This document shows, piece by piece, positions 32,746-57,382 of a stretch of DNA of 64,000 bases. The notes under the pieces are model-generated. The model was not told where the DNA came from. It saw only the letters and a list, made by a program, of their open reading frames with translations, and ran no database searches. The stretch's first letter is position 1. Every line of letters begins with the position of its first letter. Both the position numbers and the translations under genes were made by a program. This DNA comes from Candidatus Anstonellales archaeon (GTDB lineage Archaea; Micrarchaeota; Micrarchaeia; Anstonellales; J096): positions 64,001 to 128,000 of the forward strand of contig JAWAFD010000001.1 of NCBI GenBank assembly GCA_038890745.1, written 5' to 3'.

Positions 32746-34305
32746 TCATAGTTCAATCTCAAAGAAAACAACCGGCGTTTCTATTCCAAAAGAAACCAGA
32801 ACATTAGGATGGACTTCCCCAACATACCCAACCCCAACCCCATTTCTTACTATTTTTGCCGCGCGCCCATGAATAAAACCATCAACATCCTCTAACCACA
32901 ATTCAAAAGAAAACCTACCCTCTTCCTTAAAAGAAAAAAGAATCGGAAGAATATTGTTTATACCAACCCGATCATCAGTAATGGCTGCGGCCAAAACCTC
33001 TTTCTCCTCCCCATCTTTGTATACCCTTCCAATCTCAAATATTTTTTGAGGCATCCCGGCCGTCTTATTCTCACTTATGATTTTAAGGAAAGAGACAAGG
33101 CATGTCGGTTTGAGCACGGTGTAATCCAAGCTTGCCGGGTTTTTTACTGTTTTTTTTGCCACCCACCCAGGACCGATTTTTTCAAGTTCGGTATTGTTTG
33201 TCAAATAAAATGTTTTTACTTCATTAAAACCAAACCCAACCATCAATTCAACAACCCAACCATTCCTTTCCTCCCCATATCCTTCATTGTATAATTCAGG
33301 AGGTTCTGGTTTGAATCTATTATACCCATACGCTATTGCAACATCCTCAACAATATCAACCTGGTCCAAAACATCTATTCTGTACGGTGGGATAAAAGCA
33401 ACCCCGTGCTCATACCCTATCCCGGCCTTTTTTAGGAGTTTTTTTATCTCTTCCTCACTAAAACTACTCCCCAATACATTGTTTATGAACGTTCGCTTAA
33501 TTTTTATTCTATTTTCTTCAAGCTTCGGGTACCACTCTCCATTAACATTCGTTTGTTCTATCCTCCCTCCTCTATCTGCAAGCGCGCAAACAATTATATT
33601 CAGAGCCTGCGAAACAGCATCAGCGTGTGTTCCAGTAACATCTATCACAAAATTCCTAGTCTCTGGTGTAAGTTTTGTTCTCTCGCTGTTTATTATTGGT
33701 GGGAATGAGATAACACCTTCTTGGTCTATGAGCATCGGATATTTTTTTTCCTTTACAAGATGGGCGTACATTTTTCCCTTCGGATGCACTTCTAAAATCT
33801 GCTTTGCGCTCATCTTTTTATCAAACTCAAGCGGAACAAACACAATATCCTCAACTGTTTTATACACAATCGGGAAAACAACCCTATCAGCATCATGGAT
33901 TCCGATTGCAACCTTCTTCCTCTTTCTCCCAAGAGTATCGTGGAGCTTTTCCTGAAGCTGTATTAAGGAAAGGAACACCTCCTCGCTTGGTTTTACATCA
34001 ACAACCTTTGCCATTACAACATATGGTCTTACATCCTTTACGCTTTTATCAACAATAACAAAATTCTCCTTTTTCTCAGCCGTATATTTTCTTAAGTCCT
34101 CTTTCTCATAGTAATAGGAAAGGGCCCTTGCCAAACCCTCAACAGAAAGCAAATCCGGCCGGTTCGGTGTAACCTCGACATCCAACATCCTACCTTCAAC
34201 TTCACTACTCGGTGCACCGATTTCATTCAACCCATTGATTATCTCCTCTTTGCTCAGGCCCGTCATCCCTTTTATTTCCTCAATACCTACCCTTACTACA
34301 GCCAT
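32746..34305 (-). CDS. pheT: Phenylalanine-tRNA ligase beta subunit
   Basis: TPNRPDLLSVEG, LQEKLH..GRKRKKVAIG, PPYRIDVL..DIVEDVAIAYGY, GEVHP. Confidence 0.95.
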   Translation of the reverse strand: MAVVRVGIEEIKGMTGLSKEEIINGLNEIGAPSSEVEGRMLDVEVTPNRPDLLSVEGLARALSYYYEKEDLRKYTAEKKENFVIVDKSVKDVRPYVVMAKVVDVKPSEEVFLSLIQLQEKLHDTLGRKRKKVAIGIHDADRVVFPIVYKTVEDIVFVPLEFDKKMSAKQILEVHPKGKMYAHLVKEKKYPMLIDQEGVISFPPIINSERTKLTPETRNFVIDVTGTHADAVSQALNIIVCALADRGGRIEQTNVNGEWYPKLEENRIKIKRTFINNVLGSSFSEEEIKKLLKKAGIGYEHGVAFIPPYRIDVLDQVDIVEDVAIAYGYNRFKPEPPELYNEGYGEERNGWVVELMVGFGFNEVKTFYLTNNTELEKIGPGWVAKKTVKNPASLDYTVLKPTCLVSFLKIISENKTAGMPQKIFEIGRVYKDGEEKEVLAAAITDDRVGINNILPILFSFKEEGRFSFELWLEDVDGFIHGRAAKIVRNGVGVGYVGEVHPNVLVSFGIETPVVFFEIEL

Positions 34306-34309
34306 AGGA

Positions 34310-35632
34310 TCACTTATCCGGGTATTCTTTATTAAGGCATCCAGTGCATATATTTTTTCCCAAAACTTTTTTCAACCCTTCTATACTCATATACCCCAAG
34401 CTATCGACATTCAAAAACTTTTTTATTTCCTCAACAGACTTTTTTGCCGCTATCAACTCATCCTCAGTTTTCATATCTATTCCATAGTAACATGGCGCTT
34501 TAAGAGGCGGGCACGTGACCATAAGATGCACCTCCTTTACACCCAATTCTCTAAGCTTTTCTACCAATATTTTTGTAGTTGTTCCGCGCACTATGCTATC
34601 ATCTATTAGAACTACTCTTTTTCCGTTTATAAATTGAGTTAGGAAAAAATATTTTTGTTTTGCAAGCTCCACCCGTTTTTCTTCATTCGGTTGGATGAAT
34701 GTTCTCCCAACATACCTGTTTTTTACAATCGCTTCCTTAACAGGTATACCAGTTGCTTCCCCAAAACCCTCCGCGGCTGTTCTTGCGGTATCTGGGATTG
34801 GGATCACAAAATCCGCATCTACAGGATTCTCTTCAGCCAAACGTTTTCCAAGCTCAAACCTTGTTTTATAGACCCCCTCCCCAAAAACTTCTGATGCTGG
34901 GTTTGCAAAATAAACAAACTCAAACATACATCTTCTTTCCCCAATGTTTTTTAGTATCTGCTTTTTTCTTAGTTCTCCATTTTCTATTATATAAAGCTCC
35001 CCCGGTTTCACTTCTTCATAATTTAGTATGTTGAGCGGTTGGAAAGCGACCGTCTCGCTTGCAAAAGCATAAAAATACTCGTTCCATCCAAAAACAAGAG
35101 GCCTTATTCCATACATATCCTTTGTTGCGAATAGTTTGTTTTTCCATATCCCAACAAGAGCATAGCTTCCCTTTGCTTTTTTTGAAAGCTCAATAAGGGC
35201 GTTCTCTATATCCTTTCCATTCTTCAACTCTTCATGCAGAATGGCTAATATCGCTTCCGAATCCGCCGATCCCTTGAAGGAATATTTCCCTCTAAAACTC
35301 TTTTTTATTTCATCATAGTTATGAATATTTCCATTATGCGCAACCGCTAGCTCTCCAAGATGGGATGGCTGCGCATCTTTCTCTGTTTCTATTTTTTTGC
35401 TTGTTGTTGGGTATCTCACATGGAATATCCCAATCCTCCCAGTTCCGGACCCAACCTCAACCAACCCAACATGTTTTTTCGTTTTTATTCTATCCTCGTG
35501 CAGTATGCTATACCCCCATGCGTCCTCTCCTCTTGATTGAATGTTTTTTAACGCACGCGTTCCAGCATCAACTATATCGACATTCCCCTTTCTTGAGAAT
35601 AAAGCAACAACACCGCAAGAATGCCTGAGCAT
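34310..35632 (-). CDS. purF: Amidophosphoribosyltransferase
   Basis: CGVV N-terminus, HVRY, HNGNI, NRYVGRTFI, DDSIVRGTT, PCYYGIDM. Confidence 0.95.
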   Translation of the reverse strand: MLRHSCGVVALFSRKGNVDIVDAGTRALKNIQSRGEDAWGYSILHEDRIKTKKHVGLVEVGSGTGRIGIFHVRYPTTSKKIETEKDAQPSHLGELAVAHNGNIHNYDEIKKSFRGKYSFKGSADSEAILAILHEELKNGKDIENALIELSKKAKGSYALVGIWKNKLFATKDMYGIRPLVFGWNEYFYAFASETVAFQPLNILNYEEVKPGELYIIENGELRKKQILKNIGERRCMFEFVYFANPASEVFGEGVYKTRFELGKRLAEENPVDADFVIPIPDTARTAAEGFGEATGIPVKEAIVKNRYVGRTFIQPNEEKRVELAKQKYFFLTQFINGKRVVLIDDSIVRGTTTKILVEKLRELGVKEVHLMVTCPPLKAPCYYGIDMKTEDELIAAKKSVEEIKKFLNVDSLGYMSIEGLKKVLGKNICTGCLNKEYPDK

Positions 35633-35682: not shown

Positions 35683-36534
35683 ATGTTTGATGCCCTTATC
35701 CCTATCTGTGATGCTGATAGATGCTTCCATTCACTAAGCGAGCAGAAAAATTATTTTAGAGTAAATACATTAAAAAATTCAGTAAAAGAATTCCTCTCCT
35801 CCTCTTCAATTCAAGTCGAAAAAACTCCGCTTCCGTTCGCTTTTTCTTCCCCCAATCCAATCGGTAGAACAGTGGAAAATTTTCTTGGCTATATCCATAT
35901 CCAATCCCTTTCTTCAATGCTTCCAGCGCTTGCGCTTTCTCCGCATAAAAATGACATTGTTTTAGATGCGTGCGCATCGCCAGGCTCAAAAACCACTCAA
36001 ATGGCAGCCATGATGGGTAATGACGGCGCGATAGTTGCAAACGATAGAAAAAGTCGCCATCCTCCACTTCTTGCTAACATCTCCCGCTTAGGTGTTCTTA
36101 ATACTGTTGTTGTTTCTTATGATGCAAAAAAATCAATAAAAGAAAATTATTTTACAAAAGCGCTTTTGGATGCCCCATGCACCGCACTTGGCGCGTGGCA
36201 GAGCGCCTGGAAAAGGTTTAAGCCAGATATAGCAAAATCCATGGCCAGGGTGCAAAAAGCGATGCTGCTCTCTTCTTTTGACTCCCTTAAACCTGGCGGA
36301 ATTCTTGTATATTCTACCTGCACCTATACAAAAGAAGAAAATGAAGAGGTTGTTAGATTTTTGCTGGAAAGAAGGGAGAATGCAAGGTTAGAAACGATCA
36401 ACATTCCTTATGAAATTCCTCATGAAACAGGTTTGAGCGAGTTTGGGAATGAGTTTAGGAAGGTATGGAGGGTATACCCCTGGCATCTTAAAAGCGAGGG
36501 GTTTTTTATTGCAAAGGTGAGAAGGGATGAATGA
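35683..36534 (+). CDS. RsmB/NOL1/NOP2 RNA m5C methyltransferase, paralog 1
   Basis: LDACASPGSKT, DAPC, YSTCT, EGFFIA. Confidence 0.9.
   Translation: MFDALIPICDADRCFHSLSEQKNYFRVNTLKNSVKEFLSSSSIQVEKTPLPFAFSSPNPIGRTVENFLGYIHIQSLSSMLPALALSPHKNDIVLDACASPGSKTTQMAAMMGNDGAIVANDRKSRHPPLLANISRLGVLNTVVVSYDAKKSIKENYFTKALLDAPCTALGAWQSAWKRFKPDIAKSMARVQKAMLLSSFDSLKPGGILVYSTCTYTKEENEEVVRFLLERRENARLETINIPYEIPHETGLSEFGNEFRKVWRVYPWHLKSEGFFIAKVRRDE
36266..36520 (+). repeat. 255-bp tract, inverted near-identical copy at 49422-49676
   Basis: Direct comparison gives 5 substitutions over 255 bp. Confidence 0.9.
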
Positions 36535-36934
36535 ATTTGAGGGATACATAAAAGAGAGGTTTGGGATAGTTCTACCTGATTGGGTAGTTGTCGAAGAGGT
36601 TGGGGATAAATTTAGGATAATGAATAAAGAGATAAGCAAAGAAAAACCAAAAAATTTTGTTTCGCGCGGGATTGTTTGCGGGAAGAAAACAACTTTTGGG
36701 GTAAAGCCAACATCAGACTTCATTCAGCTTTTTGGCCATCTTGCAAGAAAAAATGTTGCTAAGATAAGCAGAGAAGAGATGCTCAATTATGCGAAGGGAA
36801 TGGATTTGGAGAGAGAGTTCGATTTTGAAAATGGGTATGTTGTTTTGAGGTATGAAAAACATAGTGTAGGGGTTGGGCTTTGCATGAATAAAAAAATAAA
36901 AAATCAGGTGGCGAAAATTAAGCGGATCCAATAA
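36527..36934 (+). CDS. NIP7/PUA-like methyltransferase accessory protein
   Basis: KPTSDFIQLFGHLARKN..YAKGMDL..GYVVL; follows the methyltransferase gene. Confidence 0.7.
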   Translation: MNEFEGYIKERFGIVLPDWVVVEEVGDKFRIMNKEISKEKPKNFVSRGIVCGKKTTFGVKPTSDFIQLFGHLARKNVAKISREEMLNYAKGMDLEREFDFENGYVVLRYEKHSVGVGLCMNKKIKNQVAKIKRIQ

Positions 36935-41810: not shown

Positions 41811-41867
41811 TTTTGTTGCCATATGGAAACAAAAATATAGCAATTTTATTTCCATTTGGAAACAAAT
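41811..41867. repeat. Tandem 24-bp palindromes abutting the ATPase stop codon
   Basis: TTTTGTTGCCATATGGAAACAAAA-9bp-TTTTATTTCCATTTGGAAACAAAT; 41842-41866 identical to 43122-43146. Confidence 0.85.
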
Positions 41868-43060
41868 TAAAAAAGAAGACCGAAAATGTAGAGTGGGATT
41901 TCATCAGATGCAACAGAAAGCGACTCTTTTACAATAAAAGACCACCCACTCCCACTGAGCTGGGAAGCACTTTTGCTTCTTCCCCCTATTTCAAAAATAT
42001 ACCCATCCACATAATAATCTGGCACCTTTTTACCAGTTTCTCTGATGTACTGTGCATGCCCTACGTGATGGATGAAAAAGTCTTCTCTCAATGCCCCTTT
42101 TTCTATGGAAACTCCAAAATACTCCCCAAGAGAATTTCTGATGGAAAGCGGGAGCATAACCTTACTCTCTCCCAGTATAGATTTATGCCCACTACCGTGC
42201 GGGGGGAGTAATGTAATCAATCCACTTATGGAGAGTAAGCGCATGAGCTCTATTGTGAACTTTACTGAGCGGCCAATAGAGTTTGCAACCGAATTGTAGC
42301 TTATTTCTCCTGGTTTTGAGGATGCTATAAACTTTAGAAGCCTAAATGCACTATCTATATACCCAGTGTCTATACTTTTTAGGGAAAGAAGATCATGGTA
42401 CACAACCCGCTCTATTATTCCTGGGTAAACGTCCTTTCCTTCAAAAAAAGCAGCAGGTAGACCGTAATGGTTGACAAACTCAGGATACAAACTAATGAAT
42501 GGAGCCACCTCCCTTGAAACCTCTACCCGTTCTTCAATAAGTTCCTTTATCGTTCTTTTTCTAAGCAGTGTTTTAGTTTTGAAATAGATATATTCCCGAA
42601 ATGAAAATGGCCTTAGCTCGCTTATACATATTCTCCTTGCTAAGTCCGAGGAGCGTGCAGCGATATCAATTGCAGAGGAACCGGTAATGATGATCTTTGT
42701 TCTGCTCTCATCATAGAAAAGTTTTATATCTTTAGGCCATTCTTTTATGACCTGTATCTCATCTATGCCAAAAGTAGTAAATCCCTGGGTGTATGCATAT
42801 GAAAGGGTTTCGTAGAGATCATAACCATGCTTGAGAAGGAACTCTGCATTTATGTACATAGCTTTTTCATATTTCTTTAATATGTGTATGAGCAACGAGG
42901 ATTTGCCGACCCCCCTAAGCCCCTTTATCGCCGAGATAATTTTTTGTTTTTTTATGCTCTCTTCTAACTCCTGCGATGCAGGCCTGAGCACATCCACTGC
43001 CTTTTCCCTACAAACTTTTTCTGAGTAAGATAGGAGTCTCGTGAAATCGTTTTCGTCCAT
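41867..43060 (-). CDS. AAA_14-type ATPase with HTH-like and C-terminal PD-(D/E)XK-like regions
   Basis: GLRGVGKS, IDEIQ, TGSS, PFSFREY, PDY..FEIGGRSK. Confidence 0.85.
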   Translation of the reverse strand: MDENDFTRLLSYSEKVCREKAVDVLRPASQELEESIKKQKIISAIKGLRGVGKSSLLIHILKKYEKAMYINAEFLLKHGYDLYETLSYAYTQGFTTFGIDEIQVIKEWPKDIKLFYDESRTKIIITGSSAIDIAARSSDLARRICISELRPFSFREYIYFKTKTLLRKRTIKELIEERVEVSREVAPFISLYPEFVNHYGLPAAFFEGKDVYPGIIERVVYHDLLSLKSIDTGYIDSAFRLLKFIASSKPGEISYNSVANSIGRSVKFTIELMRLLSISGLITLLPPHGSGHKSILGESKVMLPLSIRNSLGEYFGVSIEKGALREDFFIHHVGHAQYIRETGKKVPDYYVDGYIFEIGGRSKSASQLSGSGWSFIVKESLSVASDEIPLYIFGLLF

Positions 43061-43091: not shown

Positions 43092-43147
43092 TTTTGTTTT
43101 CTCTAGGAAATAAAAAACTTAAATTTTATTTCCATTTGGAAACAAAA
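43092..43147. repeat. Tandem 24-bp palindromes upstream of the ATPase TATA-like box
   Basis: TTTTGTTTTCTCTAGGAAATAAAA-8bp-TTTTATTTCCATTTGGAAACAAAA. Confidence 0.85.
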
Positions 43148-47659: not shown

Positions 47660-48982
47660 TTATAAAAACTTCTCCATGTCCTTTAAATCAAAAAGCAGAA
47701 TGCCAGGTTCTTTGAATTTTTCTTTAAAGCTTTTTGCGAATATAACATAGGTTTGTTTTTTACTTGGCCAATCAACGCACCTTGCCTTCTCCTTCAACTC
47801 GGTAAAAATAATCCTCGCATTAACCCGTTCCTGCCACTTGCACTCTGCAAAAAGGATCTCTCGTGTCCGCTCATTTAACCCAACGATATCTATCTCTTTG
47901 TCTTTATGCCACCACTTTCCAATCTTTGTTAGATTAAACATTCTCATTTCCAATAGGAAGTCCTTACACACATCCTCAAAAGATTTGCTGGTATATGTGT
48001 TGAGCTCCTGTTTAACTAAATTTAAAACTTCTTTCTGTAAGCCCTGTTCCAGCATAGATCTGTTTTTGAAAATAAATTTGAACCAAAACTTGTAGAAATT
48101 ATCCTTGATTTTGTATCTGGTTGTTTTTGCTTTTAGTTTCTTTTCAGTTACCGGGATCTCCTTTTCTATGAGACCTACTCTTTCCAAAATCAACAAGTAT
48201 TTTGGTAATTTATAAGTTTGGATTTTACTGAATCCAGCTATTTCAGCAAATTTTACATACCCATTTGTTATAGCTGAAAGTATGGAGGCGTAGGGTGCAG
48301 GGGCCCTAAACTCTTCAAACAGAAGATTGAATGGTTCGTGGTATAAAAAAGAGGTTCTATCCAAGATCTTCCTTTTAATATTCTCCTCAATACTTAATTT
48401 TGAGTCGAATTCTTCCAGGTATCTAGGAATCCCACCTAAGATTGAGTAAACTTCACCAAGCTGCTTAGCGTTGTACCCTGGAAAAAAGTCTTTTATGAAC
48501 TTAAATCTTAGCGGTAGGATATGCATTTCTGCAGTCTTTCTGCCATAGAGAGGAGAACCATAACCCATCGCAATCTTGTATATCGTTGAGATTATCGAAC
48601 CGCAAAGAATTATTTTTTTGTCAGTCTCCTTTATCTTTTCCTACCATCTCTGTGCTATCGTAGGCCAGGCTTTATTGACCTGGTACAAATACTGGAACTC
48701 ATCAATAATTATGACCTTGTGCTTACTCCTATAAAGAAACTCAAAAAAATCATCCCAAGTGTTGAATCTTACAAATTCTCCTCTTATTTGATCTGAAAGA
48801 ACATCTAGTATGTTTTCTGATACATCCGCCAGCAGATAGAGCGCACCTGTTTTTTTAGCAAATTCAACCAAGAGTCTACTTTTTCCAACCCTACGCCTAC
48901 CATAAAGCAAAACAAGCTCAGCCTTCTTTGATGTCGCAAGCTCTAGCAACCTACCAAGCTCTTCCTCCCTATCAATAAACAT
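47660..48982 (-). pseudogene. Archaeal ATPase (ATPase_2/DUF234-type) with in-frame TAG at 48641-48643
   Basis: FIDREEEL, GRRRVGKS, IIDEFQ, QRW*EKI..ILCGS..PLYGR, EIDIV..ECKW; both halves in the same frame. Confidence 0.85.
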
Positions 48983-49006
48983 TATCATAATAATCATTAT
49001 CGTAAT
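48981..49006. promoter_or_regulatory. Tandem quasi-palindrome over the ATPase start
   Basis: ATTATCATAAT-aatc-ATTATCGTAAT between the TATA-like box and the start codon. Confidence 0.5.
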
Positions 49007-49057
49007 CCTGTTTTTAAAACTTTGGGTTTGGGCCCCTCGCATAAAAGACTCTTTCTA

Positions 49058-49417
49058 CTATGACCTGTTATTGTATCCAAAAGCAACACCGACCGGTCTG
49101 GCATTAAAAAAAGCAATGTAATACTCACCGATTACGCGATTTTTCATTTTTATTTTCTTGTTTTTGATAATTTTTCTCGCCTCCTCTTCTGAAATATTGA
49201 TCCTGTTTTTTGTAGCCAGATGACCAAATGTTCTTGCGAAAGAATGTGTTGGTTTGTTTGTGTAAACCAAAATCCCGCGCCTACCTTTGATGTCTATTGA
49301 CATTAATGATTTTGAAAACGCCCTTATCCCTTCTTTCTTTTCCTCAAAAACAATGTTTTTTGGAAAAACGATTCCGAATTTTTCATAAACAAATTTTTTG
49401 AATTCATTTACTCGCAC
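49058..49417 (-). CDS. NIP7/PUA-like accessory protein, paralog 2
   Basis: KPTHSFARTFGHLATKN, similar to 36527-36934. Confidence 0.65.
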   Translation of the reverse strand: MRVNEFKKFVYEKFGIVFPKNIVFEEKKEGIRAFSKSLMSIDIKGRRGILVYTNKPTHSFARTFGHLATKNRINISEEEARKIIKNKKIKMKNRVIGEYYIAFFNARPVGVAFGYNNRS

Positions 49418-50283
49418 CTGATCACCTTTGCAATAAAAAACCCCTCGCTTTTAAGATGCCAGGGGTATACCCTCCATACCTTCCTAAACTCATTCCCAAA
49501 CTCGCTCAAACCTGTTTCATGAGGAATTTCATAAGGAATGTTGATTGTTTCTAACCTTGCATTCTCCCTTCTTTCCAGCAAAAATCTAATAACCTCTTCA
49601 TTTTCTTCTTTTGTATAGGTGCAGGTAGAATACACAAGAACCCCGCCAGGTTTAAGGGAGTCAAAAGAAGAGAGCAAAATCTGTTTTTGCAAACCAGAAA
49701 TTTTTAAACTATCCTTAACCTGCCATTTTGCGTAAGCATATGGAGAAGAGCCCAGACCAGAGCATGGTGCATCAACCAAAACAAAATCAAAATACCCTGG
49801 CTTCAAAAGTTTTGTTCCGCTTCTTTGCGTTATTATTGTATTCAGTACCCCAAGCCGGTTTATATTATTTACAAGCGCGCTTATCCTCTCGATCCTCACA
49901 TCGTTTGCATAAATAATCCCGGTATTCTTCATCATCGCAGCCATCTGGGTTGTTTTTGAGCCTGGCGCTGCGCAAACATCATAAACCTTAGAGCCAGGTC
50001 TAGGGTTCAAAACGACGGGCGGAAGCATGGACCCTAAACTCTGAGTATGTATGTATCCTAAAAAATACTCTATCGTGTTCCCAAGCTTTATGTTTTCATC
50101 AAAAACATAGAAAGCATTCTCAAAAACAGCCCTTTCCAATTTCAACCGGCTGAATTCCAAAAATTCATACACGTTTGTTTTTATTTCATTCACCCGGATT
50201 GTTGGTTTTATGTTGAGCAAAAATTCATTTGCATCCTCTCTTGTAAAGCCCGAAAGCCAACCTTTGTATTCAGAATATTCCAT
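49408..50283 (-). CDS. RsmB/NOL1/NOP2 RNA m5C methyltransferase, paralog 2
   Basis: DVCAAPGSKT, DAPCSG, YSTCT; start placed at MEYSEY. Confidence 0.9.
   Translation of the reverse strand: MEYSEYKGWLSGFTREDANEFLLNIKPTIRVNEIKTNVYEFLEFSRLKLERAVFENAFYVFDENIKLGNTIEYFLGYIHTQSLGSMLPPVVLNPRPGSKVYDVCAAPGSKTTQMAAMMKNTGIIYANDVRIERISALVNNINRLGVLNTIITQRSGTKLLKPGYFDFVLVDAPCSGLGSSPYAYAKWQVKDSLKISGLQKQILLSSFDSLKPGGVLVYSTCTYTKEENEEVIRFLLERRENARLETINIPYEIPHETGLSEFGNEFRKVWRVYPWHLKSEGFFIAKVIRCE
49422..49676 (-). repeat. Inverted copy of 36266-36520
   Basis: Reverse complement matches with 5 substitutions. Confidence 0.9.
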
Positions 50284-53906: not shown

Positions 53907-54689
53907 ATGCAACCTCTTAAAAATTCATACCGTTTATTTTCCCAAAAAGCACTCCAGTTCCTATACTTAATGGTTCTCCAACCGATATTCACAGGTTCGG
54001 TGTTGTTCACATTTGCTGGTATCGTTTTTTTCTTGCTCATCCTAGTAAATGCTTTTGGTTATCTTAACCCATCAAACGGAGTGTATGTTGTTGGTGCATT
54101 CGTAGGGGTTATGCTTGCCATAAGCTTCTATTTCTACTCTGCATTCAAGGGTGCTCTTGTAAAAGGTTTCTCTCAGATTGCATTTGCGCACGGAATGGAT
54201 TTGGAAGACTTTCTTGTCTATTCCATGGTAAGAGGGATGAAATTTTTTGGAATCTCTATTCTTAAAATATTCCTTTACATAATCATATTGGCGCCTCTTG
54301 CCATTACCTATTACTTCCGGCCAGACTTTTTTTCAGCAGAGTACATCCCGATAGTTCTTGCCGCAATATACATCCCATTGTTTTTTATAATTGAGTATGG
54401 TTTCTGTCTTTCATACATAGGGGTTGCGTTGAGGGATTTTGGTGTCAGGGATGCGATAAAAGCTTCATTAAAGATGACATTCAAATCAATAGCCGACTTT
54501 TTTCCTCTCTACCTTGTGTACGCTATAGTATGGTGGGCAAGGCTCATCCCCCTTGTTGGCATAGCCATCCACTTTGTCCTCTACCCAGTTGTGTACACCG
54601 CCCTAATCTTTCAGTTCCAAGAAAGTGTAGGGAGGTCATACCGCCCTACCTATCGTGAAGAAAAAGACATAGATATAATTATTGGCTAG
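53907..54689 (+). CDS. Hypothetical membrane protein
   Basis: About 6 TM segments; start placed at MQPLKN. Confidence 0.6.
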   Translation: MQPLKNSYRLFSQKALQFLYLMVLQPIFTGSVLFTFAGIVFFLLILVNAFGYLNPSNGVYVVGAFVGVMLAISFYFYSAFKGALVKGFSQIAFAHGMDLEDFLVYSMVRGMKFFGISILKIFLYIIILAPLAITYYFRPDFFSAEYIPIVLAAIYIPLFFIIEYGFCLSYIGVALRDFGVRDAIKASLKMTFKSIADFFPLYLVYAIVWWARLIPLVGIAIHFVLYPVVYTALIFQFQESVGRSYRPTYREEKDIDIIIG

Positions 54690-55632
54690 CGCCCCGAACG
54701 TATCTGTACGCAGAAACAGCAGCAAGAGCCCCCTCCCCGGCAGCCCAAACAACCTGTTTTATCCTGTTTTTTCTCACATCCCCAGCGGCGAATATCCCTT
54801 CCCCAGCCATAAGCGAATCGTCCGTGATTATGTATCCGTGTTCATCTGTTTTTACAATTTTTTTGAAAGGTTCGCTGTTCGGCTCCATTCCTATGTAAAT
54901 AAAAACCCCATCAATTTTTTTCTCATAACTTTTGTTTTTTTCTTTATCTAAAAGTATAACACTCTCTACTTTTTCTTTACCCCTTATTTCCCTTGTCTCC
55001 GTGTTAAAGATAAATTCTATTTTTTTGTTGGCGAATGCGCGGTCTATTAAAACTTTTTCAGCCTTAAGGTTATCCTTGTTTTTTCGGTATACAACATAAA
55101 CTTTTTTAGCAAAGTTTGTTAGGTAGTTTGCTTCTTCGATGGCCGAGTTTCCTCCACCAACAACCATGACCTCTTTATCCTTAAAAAATGGGCCATCGCA
55201 CGTTGCGCAATAGCTTATCCCCTTTCCCTTTAGCTCCTTTTCACCCGGAACATTAAGCATTTTCTCCTTCTCACCGGTTGCTATTATCACCGCCTTTGCT
55301 TTCAGCTCGCCAGCGCTCGTTTCCAACACCACCCAACCCCCTTCTTTTTTTGCATTCTTAACCTCAACAAAATTCCTAAGCTCCGCACCTGCTTTTTTTG
55401 CATGCTCGGCAAACCTTTCAGCAAGTTCGCTTCCCTTTATGCTTTCTATTCCCGGATAGTTCTCAACATTGTTTGTATTTGAAATCTGCCCACCGAAAAC
55501 ACCCTTTTCAAGAACGAGAACATCCAAACCAGCCCTTGCTGCGTATATAGCGGCAGAAAGCCCTGCAGGCCCGCCACCAACGATTATCAACTCATACTCT
55601 TTTTTTCTGGATTTTGATGGCAGAGTAAACAT
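54679..55632 (-). CDS. trxB: Thioredoxin-disulfide reductase
   Basis: GGGPAG, CATCD, GGGNSA, FAAGD. Confidence 0.95.
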   Translation of the reverse strand: MFTLPSKSRKKEYELIIVGGGPAGLSAAIYAARAGLDVLVLEKGVFGGQISNTNNVENYPGIESIKGSELAERFAEHAKKAGAELRNFVEVKNAKKEGGWVVLETSAGELKAKAVIIATGEKEKMLNVPGEKELKGKGISYCATCDGPFFKDKEVMVVGGGNSAIEEANYLTNFAKKVYVVYRKNKDNLKAEKVLIDRAFANKKIEFIFNTETREIRGKEKVESVILLDKEKNKSYEKKIDGVFIYIGMEPNSEPFKKIVKTDEHGYIITDDSLMAGEGIFAAGDVRKNRIKQVVWAAGEGALAAVSAYRYVRGASQ

Positions 55633-55693
55633 GCTTTTTCTATTGCAGAGAATGTTTAAATATCTTGTTCAGAGAAGCAAAAGTGTGGAATGA

Positions 55694-55743
55694 TTCCGCT
55701 CTACCGACCAAAATCAAATAAAAATGGTCGCTGGAGCGGAATT
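55694..55743. repeat. 50-bp hairpin-forming direct repeat (3' flank of the ATPase)
   Basis: TTCCGCTCTACCGACCAAAATCAAATAAAAATGGTCGCTGGAGCGGAATT, identical to 57040-57089. Confidence 0.95.
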
Positions 55744-57007
55744 AAACCGAAAGCGCAAACAAAGGAATGGGGATTCGCTCCTTCGATATTGTTTCATCCA
55801 TGCTGAGTGTGAGTATGCCTTCTCTTGATTTCTTTCCTTTCCCTCCAACCTCTATTCGCAGCCCGTTGGCTATAAAATCTACTTCATGGCTGTAGAAAAT
55901 CGCGCCAGATAGCGATAAGAGATGCCGAAATACTGAATCCTCTCTAAGATTTCCTGTTATCTCTGCGCTGCTTACTATGGGTAAAGCAAGGATATACCGC
56001 ATAGATGGTGAATAAAAAAACCATTTCTTTGGCTTCTTGAACATCCTACCCCTTCCTTGGTATTCTATCCCTTTGATTATCATCCCATTTTCAAATACCT
56101 CAAGCAGCTTTCCAATACTTTCTTTTGATACACCTACAACTTCAGAAAGGGTAGTCAGCTTAACAGCATCCGCAGGAATGGTTGAAAGATACTTTATCAG
56201 CCTCTCTGCTGCGGTCAGCATCCTTGTTTCAAATTTTTCATATCTGGAAAAATCTTCATATATAGTTCTTTTCACGATTTTATTTATTCCATCAGCATAC
56301 GCATGCTCATCAAGTCTGAGTGCGGCCGGTAGGTCATGGCGCATGTATTCATCATACAGCGCAAGAAGATTATATGGGCCAAGTAAAGAAAGTACTCTCA
56401 GGTATTCCTCATCAAGATTTTTTTTCCCGAGATTTTTCCGTATGCTTTTGGATATCTCATCAGGTATTACTATTCCATATCTAAGCATTAGGTATTCTCT
56501 GAAAGAGAGGGGGTGTACCTGAAGCTCGTATGCCCTTCTGGTTAGCTCTGTTGTTTTTCTGAGCGGAAGGGCGGATGAAGAGGTTGCGATTATAACAAGG
56601 TTTGGCCTTCTATCATGAAGGACTTTAAGGTGGATATCCCATTCAGGAAGATAGGTTATTTCATCCAGGAGGAGTAGAAATTTTTTGCCTAACCCGACCC
56701 TCTCCTTTTTTATATAATCTAACGCTTCGAGAGCATGGTTGAGTGTTATCCCGCGCGATATAAGCTCATCGCATGAAAAATAAGCCTTTTCCCCTGCTGT
56801 TTCATTGAAAAGCTGGTATAACCCCGTAGTCTTTCCTGTACCCCGTAAACCAGTGAGAATAAATACACGTTGCCCGCTTCTCGCAACTGCCGCTCTTAGT
56901 TCATTAACAAAGCATCTTTTGGACTTCACATTTTTAAGCTCTTCGGCGATTATTTTTGGAGTTTCTGCCAGTGTGTTCAACACAAACCTCTTTATTATTT
57001 CGGTCAT
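55742..57007 (-). CDS. AAA_14-type ATPase with HTH-like and C-terminal PD-(D/E)XK-like regions
   Basis: GLRGTGKT, LLDEI, TSSS, PLSFREY, EVDF..IEVGGKGK; start placed at MTEII. Confidence 0.85.
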   Translation of the reverse strand: MTEIIKRFVLNTLAETPKIIAEELKNVKSKRCFVNELRAAVARSGQRVFILTGLRGTGKTTGLYQLFNETAGEKAYFSCDELISRGITLNHALEALDYIKKERVGLGKKFLLLLDEITYLPEWDIHLKVLHDRRPNLVIIATSSSALPLRKTTELTRRAYELQVHPLSFREYLMLRYGIVIPDEISKSIRKNLGKKNLDEEYLRVLSLLGPYNLLALYDEYMRHDLPAALRLDEHAYADGINKIVKRTIYEDFSRYEKFETRMLTAAERLIKYLSTIPADAVKLTTLSEVVGVSKESIGKLLEVFENGMIIKGIEYQGRGRMFKKPKKWFFYSPSMRYILALPIVSSAEITGNLREDSVFRHLLSLSGAIFYSHEVDFIANGLRIEVGGKGKKSREGILTLSMDETISKERIPIPLFALSV

Positions 57008-57039
57008 AGGAGTATTTTGGAGTACCACCTTTATAAGGT

Positions 57040-57089
57040 TTCCGCTCTACCGACCAAAATCAAATAAAAATGGTCGCTGGAGCGGAATT
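57040..57089. repeat. 50-bp hairpin-forming direct repeat (5' flank of the ATPase)
   Basis: Identical to 55694-55743; immediately upstream of CTTATAAA on the minus strand. Confidence 0.95.
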
Positions 57090-57100
57090 CTCTGGAGAAA

Positions 57101-57382
57101 TTACTGCTTATTTTTCCATCTTTCATCAATTTTTTTATCATATATAACTAACTCATACCCTCCGTTTTCTTTGCTTATGATCTCTGCTTTAGTATTTCCA
57201 TAGGTCCTTTTCTCACCCTCATAAAAAAATATCCTATCAAGCGTTTTCCACTGCGAGCCCTGTGCGTATTTATATCTTACTTCCATTTTAAGCTTCATAG
57301 AAAATGCAATGGATTCAAGATCCTCTATCTCCTTTTCAGAAATACCATAGGACACCAGCCATCTATTTATTTTGTATTTCAC
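57101..57382 (-). CDS. Hypothetical protein
   Basis: 93-aa ORF, GTG start. Confidence 0.5.
   Translation of the reverse strand: MKYKINRWLVSYGISEKEIEDLESIAFSMKLKMEVRYKYAQGSQWKTLDRIFFYEGEKRTYGNTKAEIISKENGGYELVIYDKKIDERWKNKQ

Follow-up and report, generated by a model that had tools for sequence, protein, structure and literature searches.

Genes for a small ATPase with a winged helix and a nuclease-like C terminus occur in archaeal genomes as one-gene units that lie between two copies of a structured DNA site. The site is specific to the element, related units occupy unrelated loci, and they are lost exactly, with one site left behind. The unit that led to these observations lies in the 64,000-nt stretch of Micrarchaeota DNA analysed here (the window, whose first letter is position 1), and it is very probable that it and its relatives are mobile cassettes. 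A fuller explanation, which we hold with moderate confidence, is that the protein encoded by this one-gene cassette binds both sites, represses its own gene via the upstream site, and pairs the two sites for excision and re-entry.

A promoter and one gene between two copies of a site

The repeat that bounds the focal cassette is identical over 50 nt between positions 55694-55743 and 57040-57089, with a spacing of 1346 nt, as an earlier model-made account of the letters (the sequence-only reading) had claimed. A third copy is absent from the whole 989,524-nt genome by blastn-short, so a genome-wide repeat family, which that reading had named among the findings that would count against it, is excluded. 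Contigs support both copies: in runs X1 (possibly the source sample) and X4, contigs that break at the 50-nt repeat show three distinct flanks, and one contig of run X3 traverses the left copy, which together exclude an assembly artefact as the source of the pair. Depth in X1 was 69 over the element and 66 and 70 over the flanks, so the element is not raised, and the repeat node reached 171 against about 136 expected. The lower X4 depth of the focal cassette (7.5, with flanks at 11.0 and 11.8) hints at a mixed population, but it is not counted as evidence because depths of 8.6 to 12.2 are found among other X4 contigs.

On the minus strand, the pair encloses a TATA-like box and one AAA_14/DUF4143-like gene, which agrees with the earlier description of a promoter plus a single gene. 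The downstream copy (D, 55694..55743, minus strand) shares 2 nt with the stop codon of the open reading frame at 55742-57028, and the upstream copy (U, 57040..57089, minus strand) ends 3 nt short of TTATAAA (57030..57036, minus strand), a TATA-like box judged by eye against the consensus; U spans the position where TFB would bind. The longest form of the reading frame starts at GTG 57028 and encodes 428 aa, and residue numbers are counted from this codon. The start is likely ATG 57007, 23 nt past the box, which gives a called protein of 421 aa and a gene at 55742..57007 (minus strand). The host flanks outside the element, both on the minus strand, are a thioredoxin-reductase-like gene (trxB, 54679..55632) and a conserved 93-aa gene (57101..57382), which directly adjoin one another in the congeners G001 and G002.

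The sequence-only reading had seen no adjacent integrase or transposase. No known transposase lies inside the focal element, and profiles for serine recombinases (PF00239), Y1 (PF01797), IS110 (PF01548) and DDE_1 (PF01609) were unmatched in the source genome (G000, 94% complete). The tyrosine recombinase profile (PF00589) was unmatched in G000, G002, G058 (a genome of another family), G250 and G034, and matched in G024, among these six incomplete cassette-bearing genomes. In addition, no Rfam match to the 50-nt site exceeded the gathering score, with chance miRNA hits reaching 21 bits against 77, so a known structured RNA was rejected as the identity of the site.

Architecture of the site and relationship of its copies

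Each copy had been described as an imperfect palindrome that forms a hairpin. Both copies do fold as hairpins (z = -5.2 to -6.2, with 0 of 200 shuffles equally stable), but two 18-bp palindromes 32 bp apart describe the site better than a single stem with a 14-nt loop. When spacer and period were scanned over 56 repeats, a sharp peak appeared at a period of 32 (19.1 with an 8-nt spacer, about 7 elsewhere), which gives the site a plan of 5-8-5-14-5-8-5: two 18-bp palindromes at a period of 32 bp, or three helical turns, with the whole two-fold symmetric. On the gene strand of the focal cassette this plan reads ATTCC-N8-GACCA-N14-TGGTC-N8-GGAAT, and its 18-bp units lie at 55725-55742 and 55693-55710 in D and at 57071-57088 and 57039-57056 in U. 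A numeric test for the plan was passed by 46 of the 54 bracketed members of the clade described below. A TATA-like word follows the upstream copy by 0-13 nt in 24 of 30 relatives, the start of the downstream copy coincides with the stop codon or lies close to it (in 8 of 30 it precedes the stop-codon end by 25 or 26 nt), and the distance from U to D across the family is 1239-1408 nt.

The sequence of the site tracks the protein that it encloses. Site identity climbs from 0.43 between proteins less than 30% identical to 0.79 between those 55-70% identical, with a Mantel r of 0.64 that overstates the relationship because kin are not independent. For example, a relative in G002 whose protein is 60% identical, and which lies at a different locus, matches the focal site at 43 of its 50 letters. 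Identity of the winged helix (wHTH) had no power to predict site identity beyond that of the whole protein (partial r -0.05).

The two copies of one element are closely matched throughout: in 30 elements, U and D are alike at 91% of the positions in the spacers, 93% in the middle and 92% in the arms. Agreement is 61% when the two spacers inside a single site are compared, and 73% and 69% between sister elements. Starting from about 0.3, identity between U and D reaches 0.8-1.0 at site position 0 and declines past position 50. Beyond that boundary, D continues for at least 5 nt into the promoter sequence that follows U in 12 of 38 elements (null 1.4%), often reaching the TATA box, and for at least 8 nt in 8 of 38 (null 0.4%), with leftward run-on in 2 of 38; some of this run-on may reflect a longer site in one subfamily. 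The agreement of the copies and the run-on toward the promoter suggest that both derive recently from a single template with the promoter coming after the site, as at a circle junction, or that they are kept alike by gene conversion. Outside the sites, 6 or more nt in common were found in 0 of 30 elements (null 8.6%), and an insertion sequence with a short target duplication outside its ends was rejected on this result.

The encoded protein

The assignment to the AAA_14/DUF4143 type stands for its ATPase half, since AAA_14 (PF13173) scores 92.3 bits against a cut-off of 27, but DUF4143 (PF13635) reaches 22.7 bits and falls below its cut-off of 28.1. The Walker A lysine K66, the Walker B residues D122/E123 and R164 are invariant in 96 of 96 clade members. 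E363, D384 and E393, within the last 75 residues, are likewise invariant in 96 of 96, with a lysine column conserved in 82 of 96; the three acidic residues form a putative PD-(D/E)XK site, and they are just as invariant in members of the clade that are not bracketed.

An AlphaFold model (pLDDT 91.7) places a winged helix at about 263-350. In fold, the model comes nearest to the archaeal ATPases 2qen (Z 16.9, rmsd 4.7, 273 aligned) and 2fna (Z 15.6, rmsd 4.3, 264 aligned), followed by STAND proteins and Orc1/Cdc6 (2qby, Z 12.4, rmsd 5.4, 201 aligned), and in a fold search with the C-terminal domain the match list was filled by winged helices. A weak PADLOC match to PDC-S01 (E 1e-28) was also obtained.

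Distribution of bracketed genes

Homologs gathered from relatives, from the phylum and from all GTDB genomes amounted to 177 distinct full-length genes, of which 169 had enough flanking sequence, or 168 once a short ATPase was dropped. Direct repeats bracket 56 of the 168 near the stop codon, at a score that mismatched pairs reach in 0.8% of cases (score 40). In a FastTree tree, 54 of these 56 fall into one clade of 96 (support 0.935), compared with 2 among the 72 genes outside it, so the suggestion that repeats would be found in the flanks of homologs was borne out for this clade. All but one of the 54 come from the phylum of the source genome, which contributes 83 clade members, and among clade members from the GTDB-wide scan 1 of 13 is bracketed, without the site anatomy. 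The proportion of 54 in 96 is likely too high because part of the sampling used a profile built from bracketed genes. Clade members have a median length of 407 aa, compared with 476 for COG1373/PDC-S01 proteins, and their DUF4143 scores are weak.

The 42 members of the clade that are not bracketed include 10 in which two sites stand in tandem upstream instead, in most cases at a distance of 81-84 nt. This arrangement suggests that binding or looping would call for two sites even where these do not enclose the gene. At L008 the scan matched a neighbouring pair that encloses no gene, and this locus has a tandem pair of its own at 83, as in L015. The neighbouring pair (L008:2913-3045, in G035) consists of two tandem sites 82 nt apart that belong to another subfamily and lie, gene-less, beside the cassette. 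An upstream site only was found in 12 clade members, and a downstream site only in none.

Other cassettes in the source genome

The window contains a second cassette, also on the minus strand. Its gene (41867..43060) encodes a 397-aa paralog of the same clade that is 25% identical to the focal protein. The downstream site (41815..41866) has its own sequence and the same anatomy, and the upstream site (43095..43146), followed by TTTATAA, is identical to it over 25 nt and diverged in the other half; this cassette fails the numeric test, although the plan is visible by eye. Across the genome, 5 of 5 paralogs of the subgroup are bracketed by repeats of their own, compared with none of the 9 further AAA_14 or ATPase_2 genes that were tested, and the paralogs' repeats are 50-58 nt long and different in sequence for each paralog.

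When 953 genes were surveyed, repeats with a score of at least 40 were found in the flanks of 11, of which 8 are P-loop ATPases of two families, namely the five subgroup paralogs and three of four short ATPase_2 genes; in total, the two families account for 8 cassettes in the genome, which also has one solo site. The three short genes (L194, L195 and L039; C1:9631-10683, C1:308212-309294 and C2:218670-219746) encode an ATPase_2 domain and a wHTH without the nuclease domain, and they are bracketed by repeats of 23-39 nt made of tandem palindromes with a period of 17-18 nt, a layout that recurs in relatives. In this short family as a whole, a downstream repeat was found in 11 of 33 genes (null 1.2%), 10 of which correspond to the operator and 1 to another position, by eye. 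The recurrence of the layout in a family that lacks the domain indicates that it does not depend on a nuclease in cis.

Several other features of these genomes were recorded. Back-to-back pairs of cassettes occur in G000 and G058 (L002:3353-5961 and L072), and, from the tandem pairs in L060 and L073, cassettes seem to land beside one another. In the window, 36251-36536 and 49406-49691 form a 286-nt inverted repeat (94%) made of the near-identical 3' ends of two paralogs that we take, from their motifs, to be RNA-methyltransferase-like; the repeat suggests gene conversion. An ATPase_2 + DUF234 gene at window positions 47660-49042 is broken into two frames; X4 has 36 letters in place of this gene, without a flanking repeat, and a minority contig of X1 has one extra base at 48621, within the split gene. 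Small units of one or two genes lie between direct repeats of 26-43 nt at C4:101939-102678, C5:51347-52338, C5:84005-85072, C4:2274-3253, C2:77591-78162 and C2:89859-90456 of the source genome, and from their motifs several presumably resemble nucleotidyltransferase/HEPN pairs and one a Fic-like gene. The same genome has a CRISPR-like array of 37-nt repeats with spacers on C3 at about 34,300-35,500, and a cluster of small genes at C5:13,000-22,200 whose members have near-identical promoter and gene-end segments of 60-215 nt in common.

Single-site alleles and probable movement between loci

The proposal of a minimal single-gene mobile cassette gains its support from bracketed homologs, from empty alleles that keep one repeat and from relatives at different loci. 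Single-site alleles were found for the second window cassette and for a relative elsewhere that is 64% identical to the focal protein. In run X4, which is about 98% identical, position 41841 is joined to 43122, so that 1280 nt are skipped, 25 letters fit both sides, and the downstream copy is retained. Among metagenome loci, L257 consists of site, gene (the 64% identical relative) and site, and L256 has one 50-nt site and no gene; their flanks are 97.4-97.7% identical, and a site-free allele of this locus had no match in 401 genomes in a DNA search run without a positive control. Both of two cassettes on C5 are present in X4, which has no empty allele over either. A scan of metagenomes with the site pattern returned 15 stretches, and the 12 distinct ones examined comprised 5 beside a gene (two of them neighbourhoods already counted and not independent), 1 solo allele and 6 chance matches without the anatomy.

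Solo sites and alternative occupants were found at further loci. The source genome has a solo site at C2:38198 that scores above the best of five shuffled genomes and closely matches the site of a cassette in G110. This site (L193, C2:38186-38255) lies right past the stop codon of a glycosyltransferase-like gene, and the cassette subfamily to which it belongs is missing from this genome. Gene-less solo sites were also found once in G214 and twice in G353. In addition, one junction occurs in three states: G002 has a relative of the cassette, G001 a degenerate, shortened solo site that forms a site-like hairpin between convergent stop codons, and G000 a short-ATPase cassette.

At the trxB locus itself, a single repeat had been predicted in related genomes. 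This prediction failed, in that both gene and site are missing beside trxB in 2 of 2 congeners (G001 and G002), and no proven empty allele of the focal cassette was found among the strains and contigs compared. Gene and site are also missing from the TrmB-Lhr locus in 2 of 2 congeners, as is the solo site from the thermosome gap of G002. The absence of the site from these three positions indicates that it is not old host sequence.

A comparison by sequence points to transfer of cassettes between lineages. Protein identity between four cassettes and their counterparts in G058 is 65-79%, with GAPDH at 64%, whereas the focal protein is 60% identical to that of congener G002, for which GAPDH identity is 91%. 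A flanking gene was in common in only 2 of 63 nearest-neighbour pairs, a count made without a matched control of ordinary genes across families. Viral contigs gave no hit to the site pattern and no relative of either ATPase family, and the 24 plasmid records that matched did so weakly, all at under 60%.

A proposed mechanism and the alternatives to it

Whether or not a relative is bracketed, its upstream copy lies against the TATA box in the manner of an operator. The site therefore likely serves as operator and as element end at once, and the two explanations offered by the sequence-only reading, a mobile cassette and paired operators, are compatible and not exclusive. Each protein probably binds its cognate site. 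A dimer would sit on each 18-bp palindrome via its winged helix, and the 32-bp period would put both dimers on one face of the DNA, where they would cover the TFB position and repress the cassette gene. Pairing of the two sites could then favour recombination between the copies, which would release a 1346-bp circle with one site and leave a solo site as a scar. On entry at a new intergenic locus, both copies would have to be regenerated from the single site of the circle, which is the weakest step; one possible route would be staggered cuts across the symmetric site, then fill-in and host end-joining. Within this scheme, an active role of the protein in movement is, on balance, the better supposition, and its nuclease domain is a tentative candidate for the cutter.

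The main rival to this proposal makes the protein a passive passenger, that is, an autoregulated defence or addiction nuclease whose upstream site is an operator, with the second copy as a footprint of arrival and the solo sites both produced by host recombination. The PDC-S01 match (E 1e-28), the 12 clade members with an upstream site and none with a downstream site alone, and the nuclease-less family, which has the same layout and mostly carries tandem palindromes at the TATA box (by eye), all fit this explanation, and loss to a single site can also be explained by plain host recombination or slippage. We nevertheless consider it unlikely, since it leaves unaccounted for the repeated duplication of exactly the 50-bp site, the inheritance across loci of the junction between stop codon and site (25 or 26 nt in 8 of 30), and the fact that ordinary operator-bearing genes are not bracketed (11 of 953). 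It is quite improbable that the cassette is instead a minimal replicon, in which the site would be an iteron array, the protein a Cdc6/Orc1-like initiator, and the whole a plasmid of 1.3 kb whose integration would proceed through opening inside the origin. Such a replicon would work without a nuclease, like the short family, and would suit an AAA-like ATPase with a wHTH that has Orc1/Cdc6 (2qby) among its fold matches, but 2qen and 2fna are closer folds (Z 16.9 and 15.6), element depth is not above that of the flanks (contigs only), and viral contigs hold no relatives and large plasmids only distant ones.

The site could also be a host hairpin, such as a terminator, that was there before insertion and was copied as a long target duplication. 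Empty alleles with one copy, the hairpin that G001 has between convergent stop codons at the place of a filled locus in G002, and a precedent in the available text on restriction-modification genes (PMC2853133) would be expected on that account. It is already disfavoured, and in our estimate very improbable, because the same site family accompanies related proteins at unrelated loci (43 of 50 nt, G000 and G002), because congeners lack the site at trxB (2 of 2), at TrmB-Lhr (2 of 2) and at the thermosome gap (G002), and because the length and anatomy of the site are fixed and not variable. The least probable alternative, with hardly any weight in our assessment, is a non-autonomous cassette moved in trans by an integron- or Xer-like site-specific recombinase. 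One gene and one site per unit, the occurrence of tandem cassettes, and 5-8-5 dyads that we take to be reminiscent of tyrosine-recombinase cores speak for it; attC-type cores are found in 0 of 46 sites, PF00589 is unmatched in 5 of 6 genomes and four other families in G000, and the many different sites in one genome would need many enzymes.

If the protein does move its own gene, the unit would be a recombinase-free mobile element of a new kind that accounts for much of the gene turnover in small DPANN genomes seemingly without ordinary transposases. A stronger version, which we regard as speculative, is that these units form a new minimal class of transposable element, in which one STAND-like ATPase-winged helix-nuclease protein would act as repressor, site-pairer and cutter, with excision as a circle, both sites rebuilt on entry, and no integrase or transposase of a known family. 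Cassettes of the nuclease-less ATPase might, equally tentatively, ride on this machinery or use a parallel route. This version would supply a first mechanism for the spread of COG1373/PDC-S01 genes, together with orthogonal pairs of protein and site. For each protein of the clade there is an exactly defined candidate DNA site, dozens of distinct pairs of protein and site are at hand, and filled, empty and solo alleles occur naturally. A protein of 421 aa and an oligonucleotide of 50 bp would thus suffice for direct tests of binding, cutting and self-mobility.

Relation to known systems

No description of these flanking repeats was found in a literature search that covered mainly titles and abstracts, with supplements and subscription literature outside it. 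In the text available from earlier surveys, DUF4143/COG1373 appears as one of the PD-(D/E)XK groups whose function is unknown (PMC3424549), and PDC-S01 is reportedly the defence candidate that ranks fourth by frequency in prokaryotes, among PDCs that are mostly candidates awaiting validation (PMC12988326). Like COG1373, AAA_14 + DUF4143 and PDC-S01 proteins as described there, the cassette protein is the product of a single gene, with an ATPase fused to a putative PD-(D/E)XK-group domain, and abundant in archaea; the available parts of these accounts say nothing of structured repeats in the flanks or of empty alleles (PMC3424549; PMC12988326).

The best fold matches over the ATPase and wHTH are the STAND-like proteins PAB2304 (PDB 2qen) and SSO1545 (2fna), whose two-domain plan is also that of the short bracketed family and which lack the C-terminal nuclease-like domain of the cassette protein. 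We know of no DNA site for PAB2304 or SSO1545.

Integron gene cassettes also combine one gene with one palindromic four-box site, and excision of the units described here would likewise give a small circle, but these units have their own promoter, the same element-specific site on both flanks, a scattered rather than arrayed distribution, and no integrase. The attC core consensus is RYYYAAC ... GTTRRRY, and an attC identity was rejected because 0 of 46 sites have such cores, the loose order AAC..GTT being found in 1 of 46. Collapse of direct repeats to a solo copy is also how solo LTRs form, and an enzyme gene placed between sites that its product recognises is found in REP-flanked RAYT transposases and in Ssn nucleases with their own flanking hairpins. 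Unlike all of these, the cassettes lack a reverse transcriptase, HUH or GIY-YIG domain, and their repeat is not a genome-wide family.

The available text on restriction-modification genes describes nuclease genes that lie between direct repeats of over 30 bp, without a mobility gene, and whose empty allele has a single copy (Furuta et al. 2010, PMC2853133). The cassettes share the repeat of over 30 bp, the one-copy empty allele and the lack of a mobility gene, but not the variable host target; their repeat is fixed, tracks the protein and is missing at the congener loci, and they carry no methyltransferase. We place the cassettes, as a variant, among repeat-bounded, recombinase-free nuclease cassettes.
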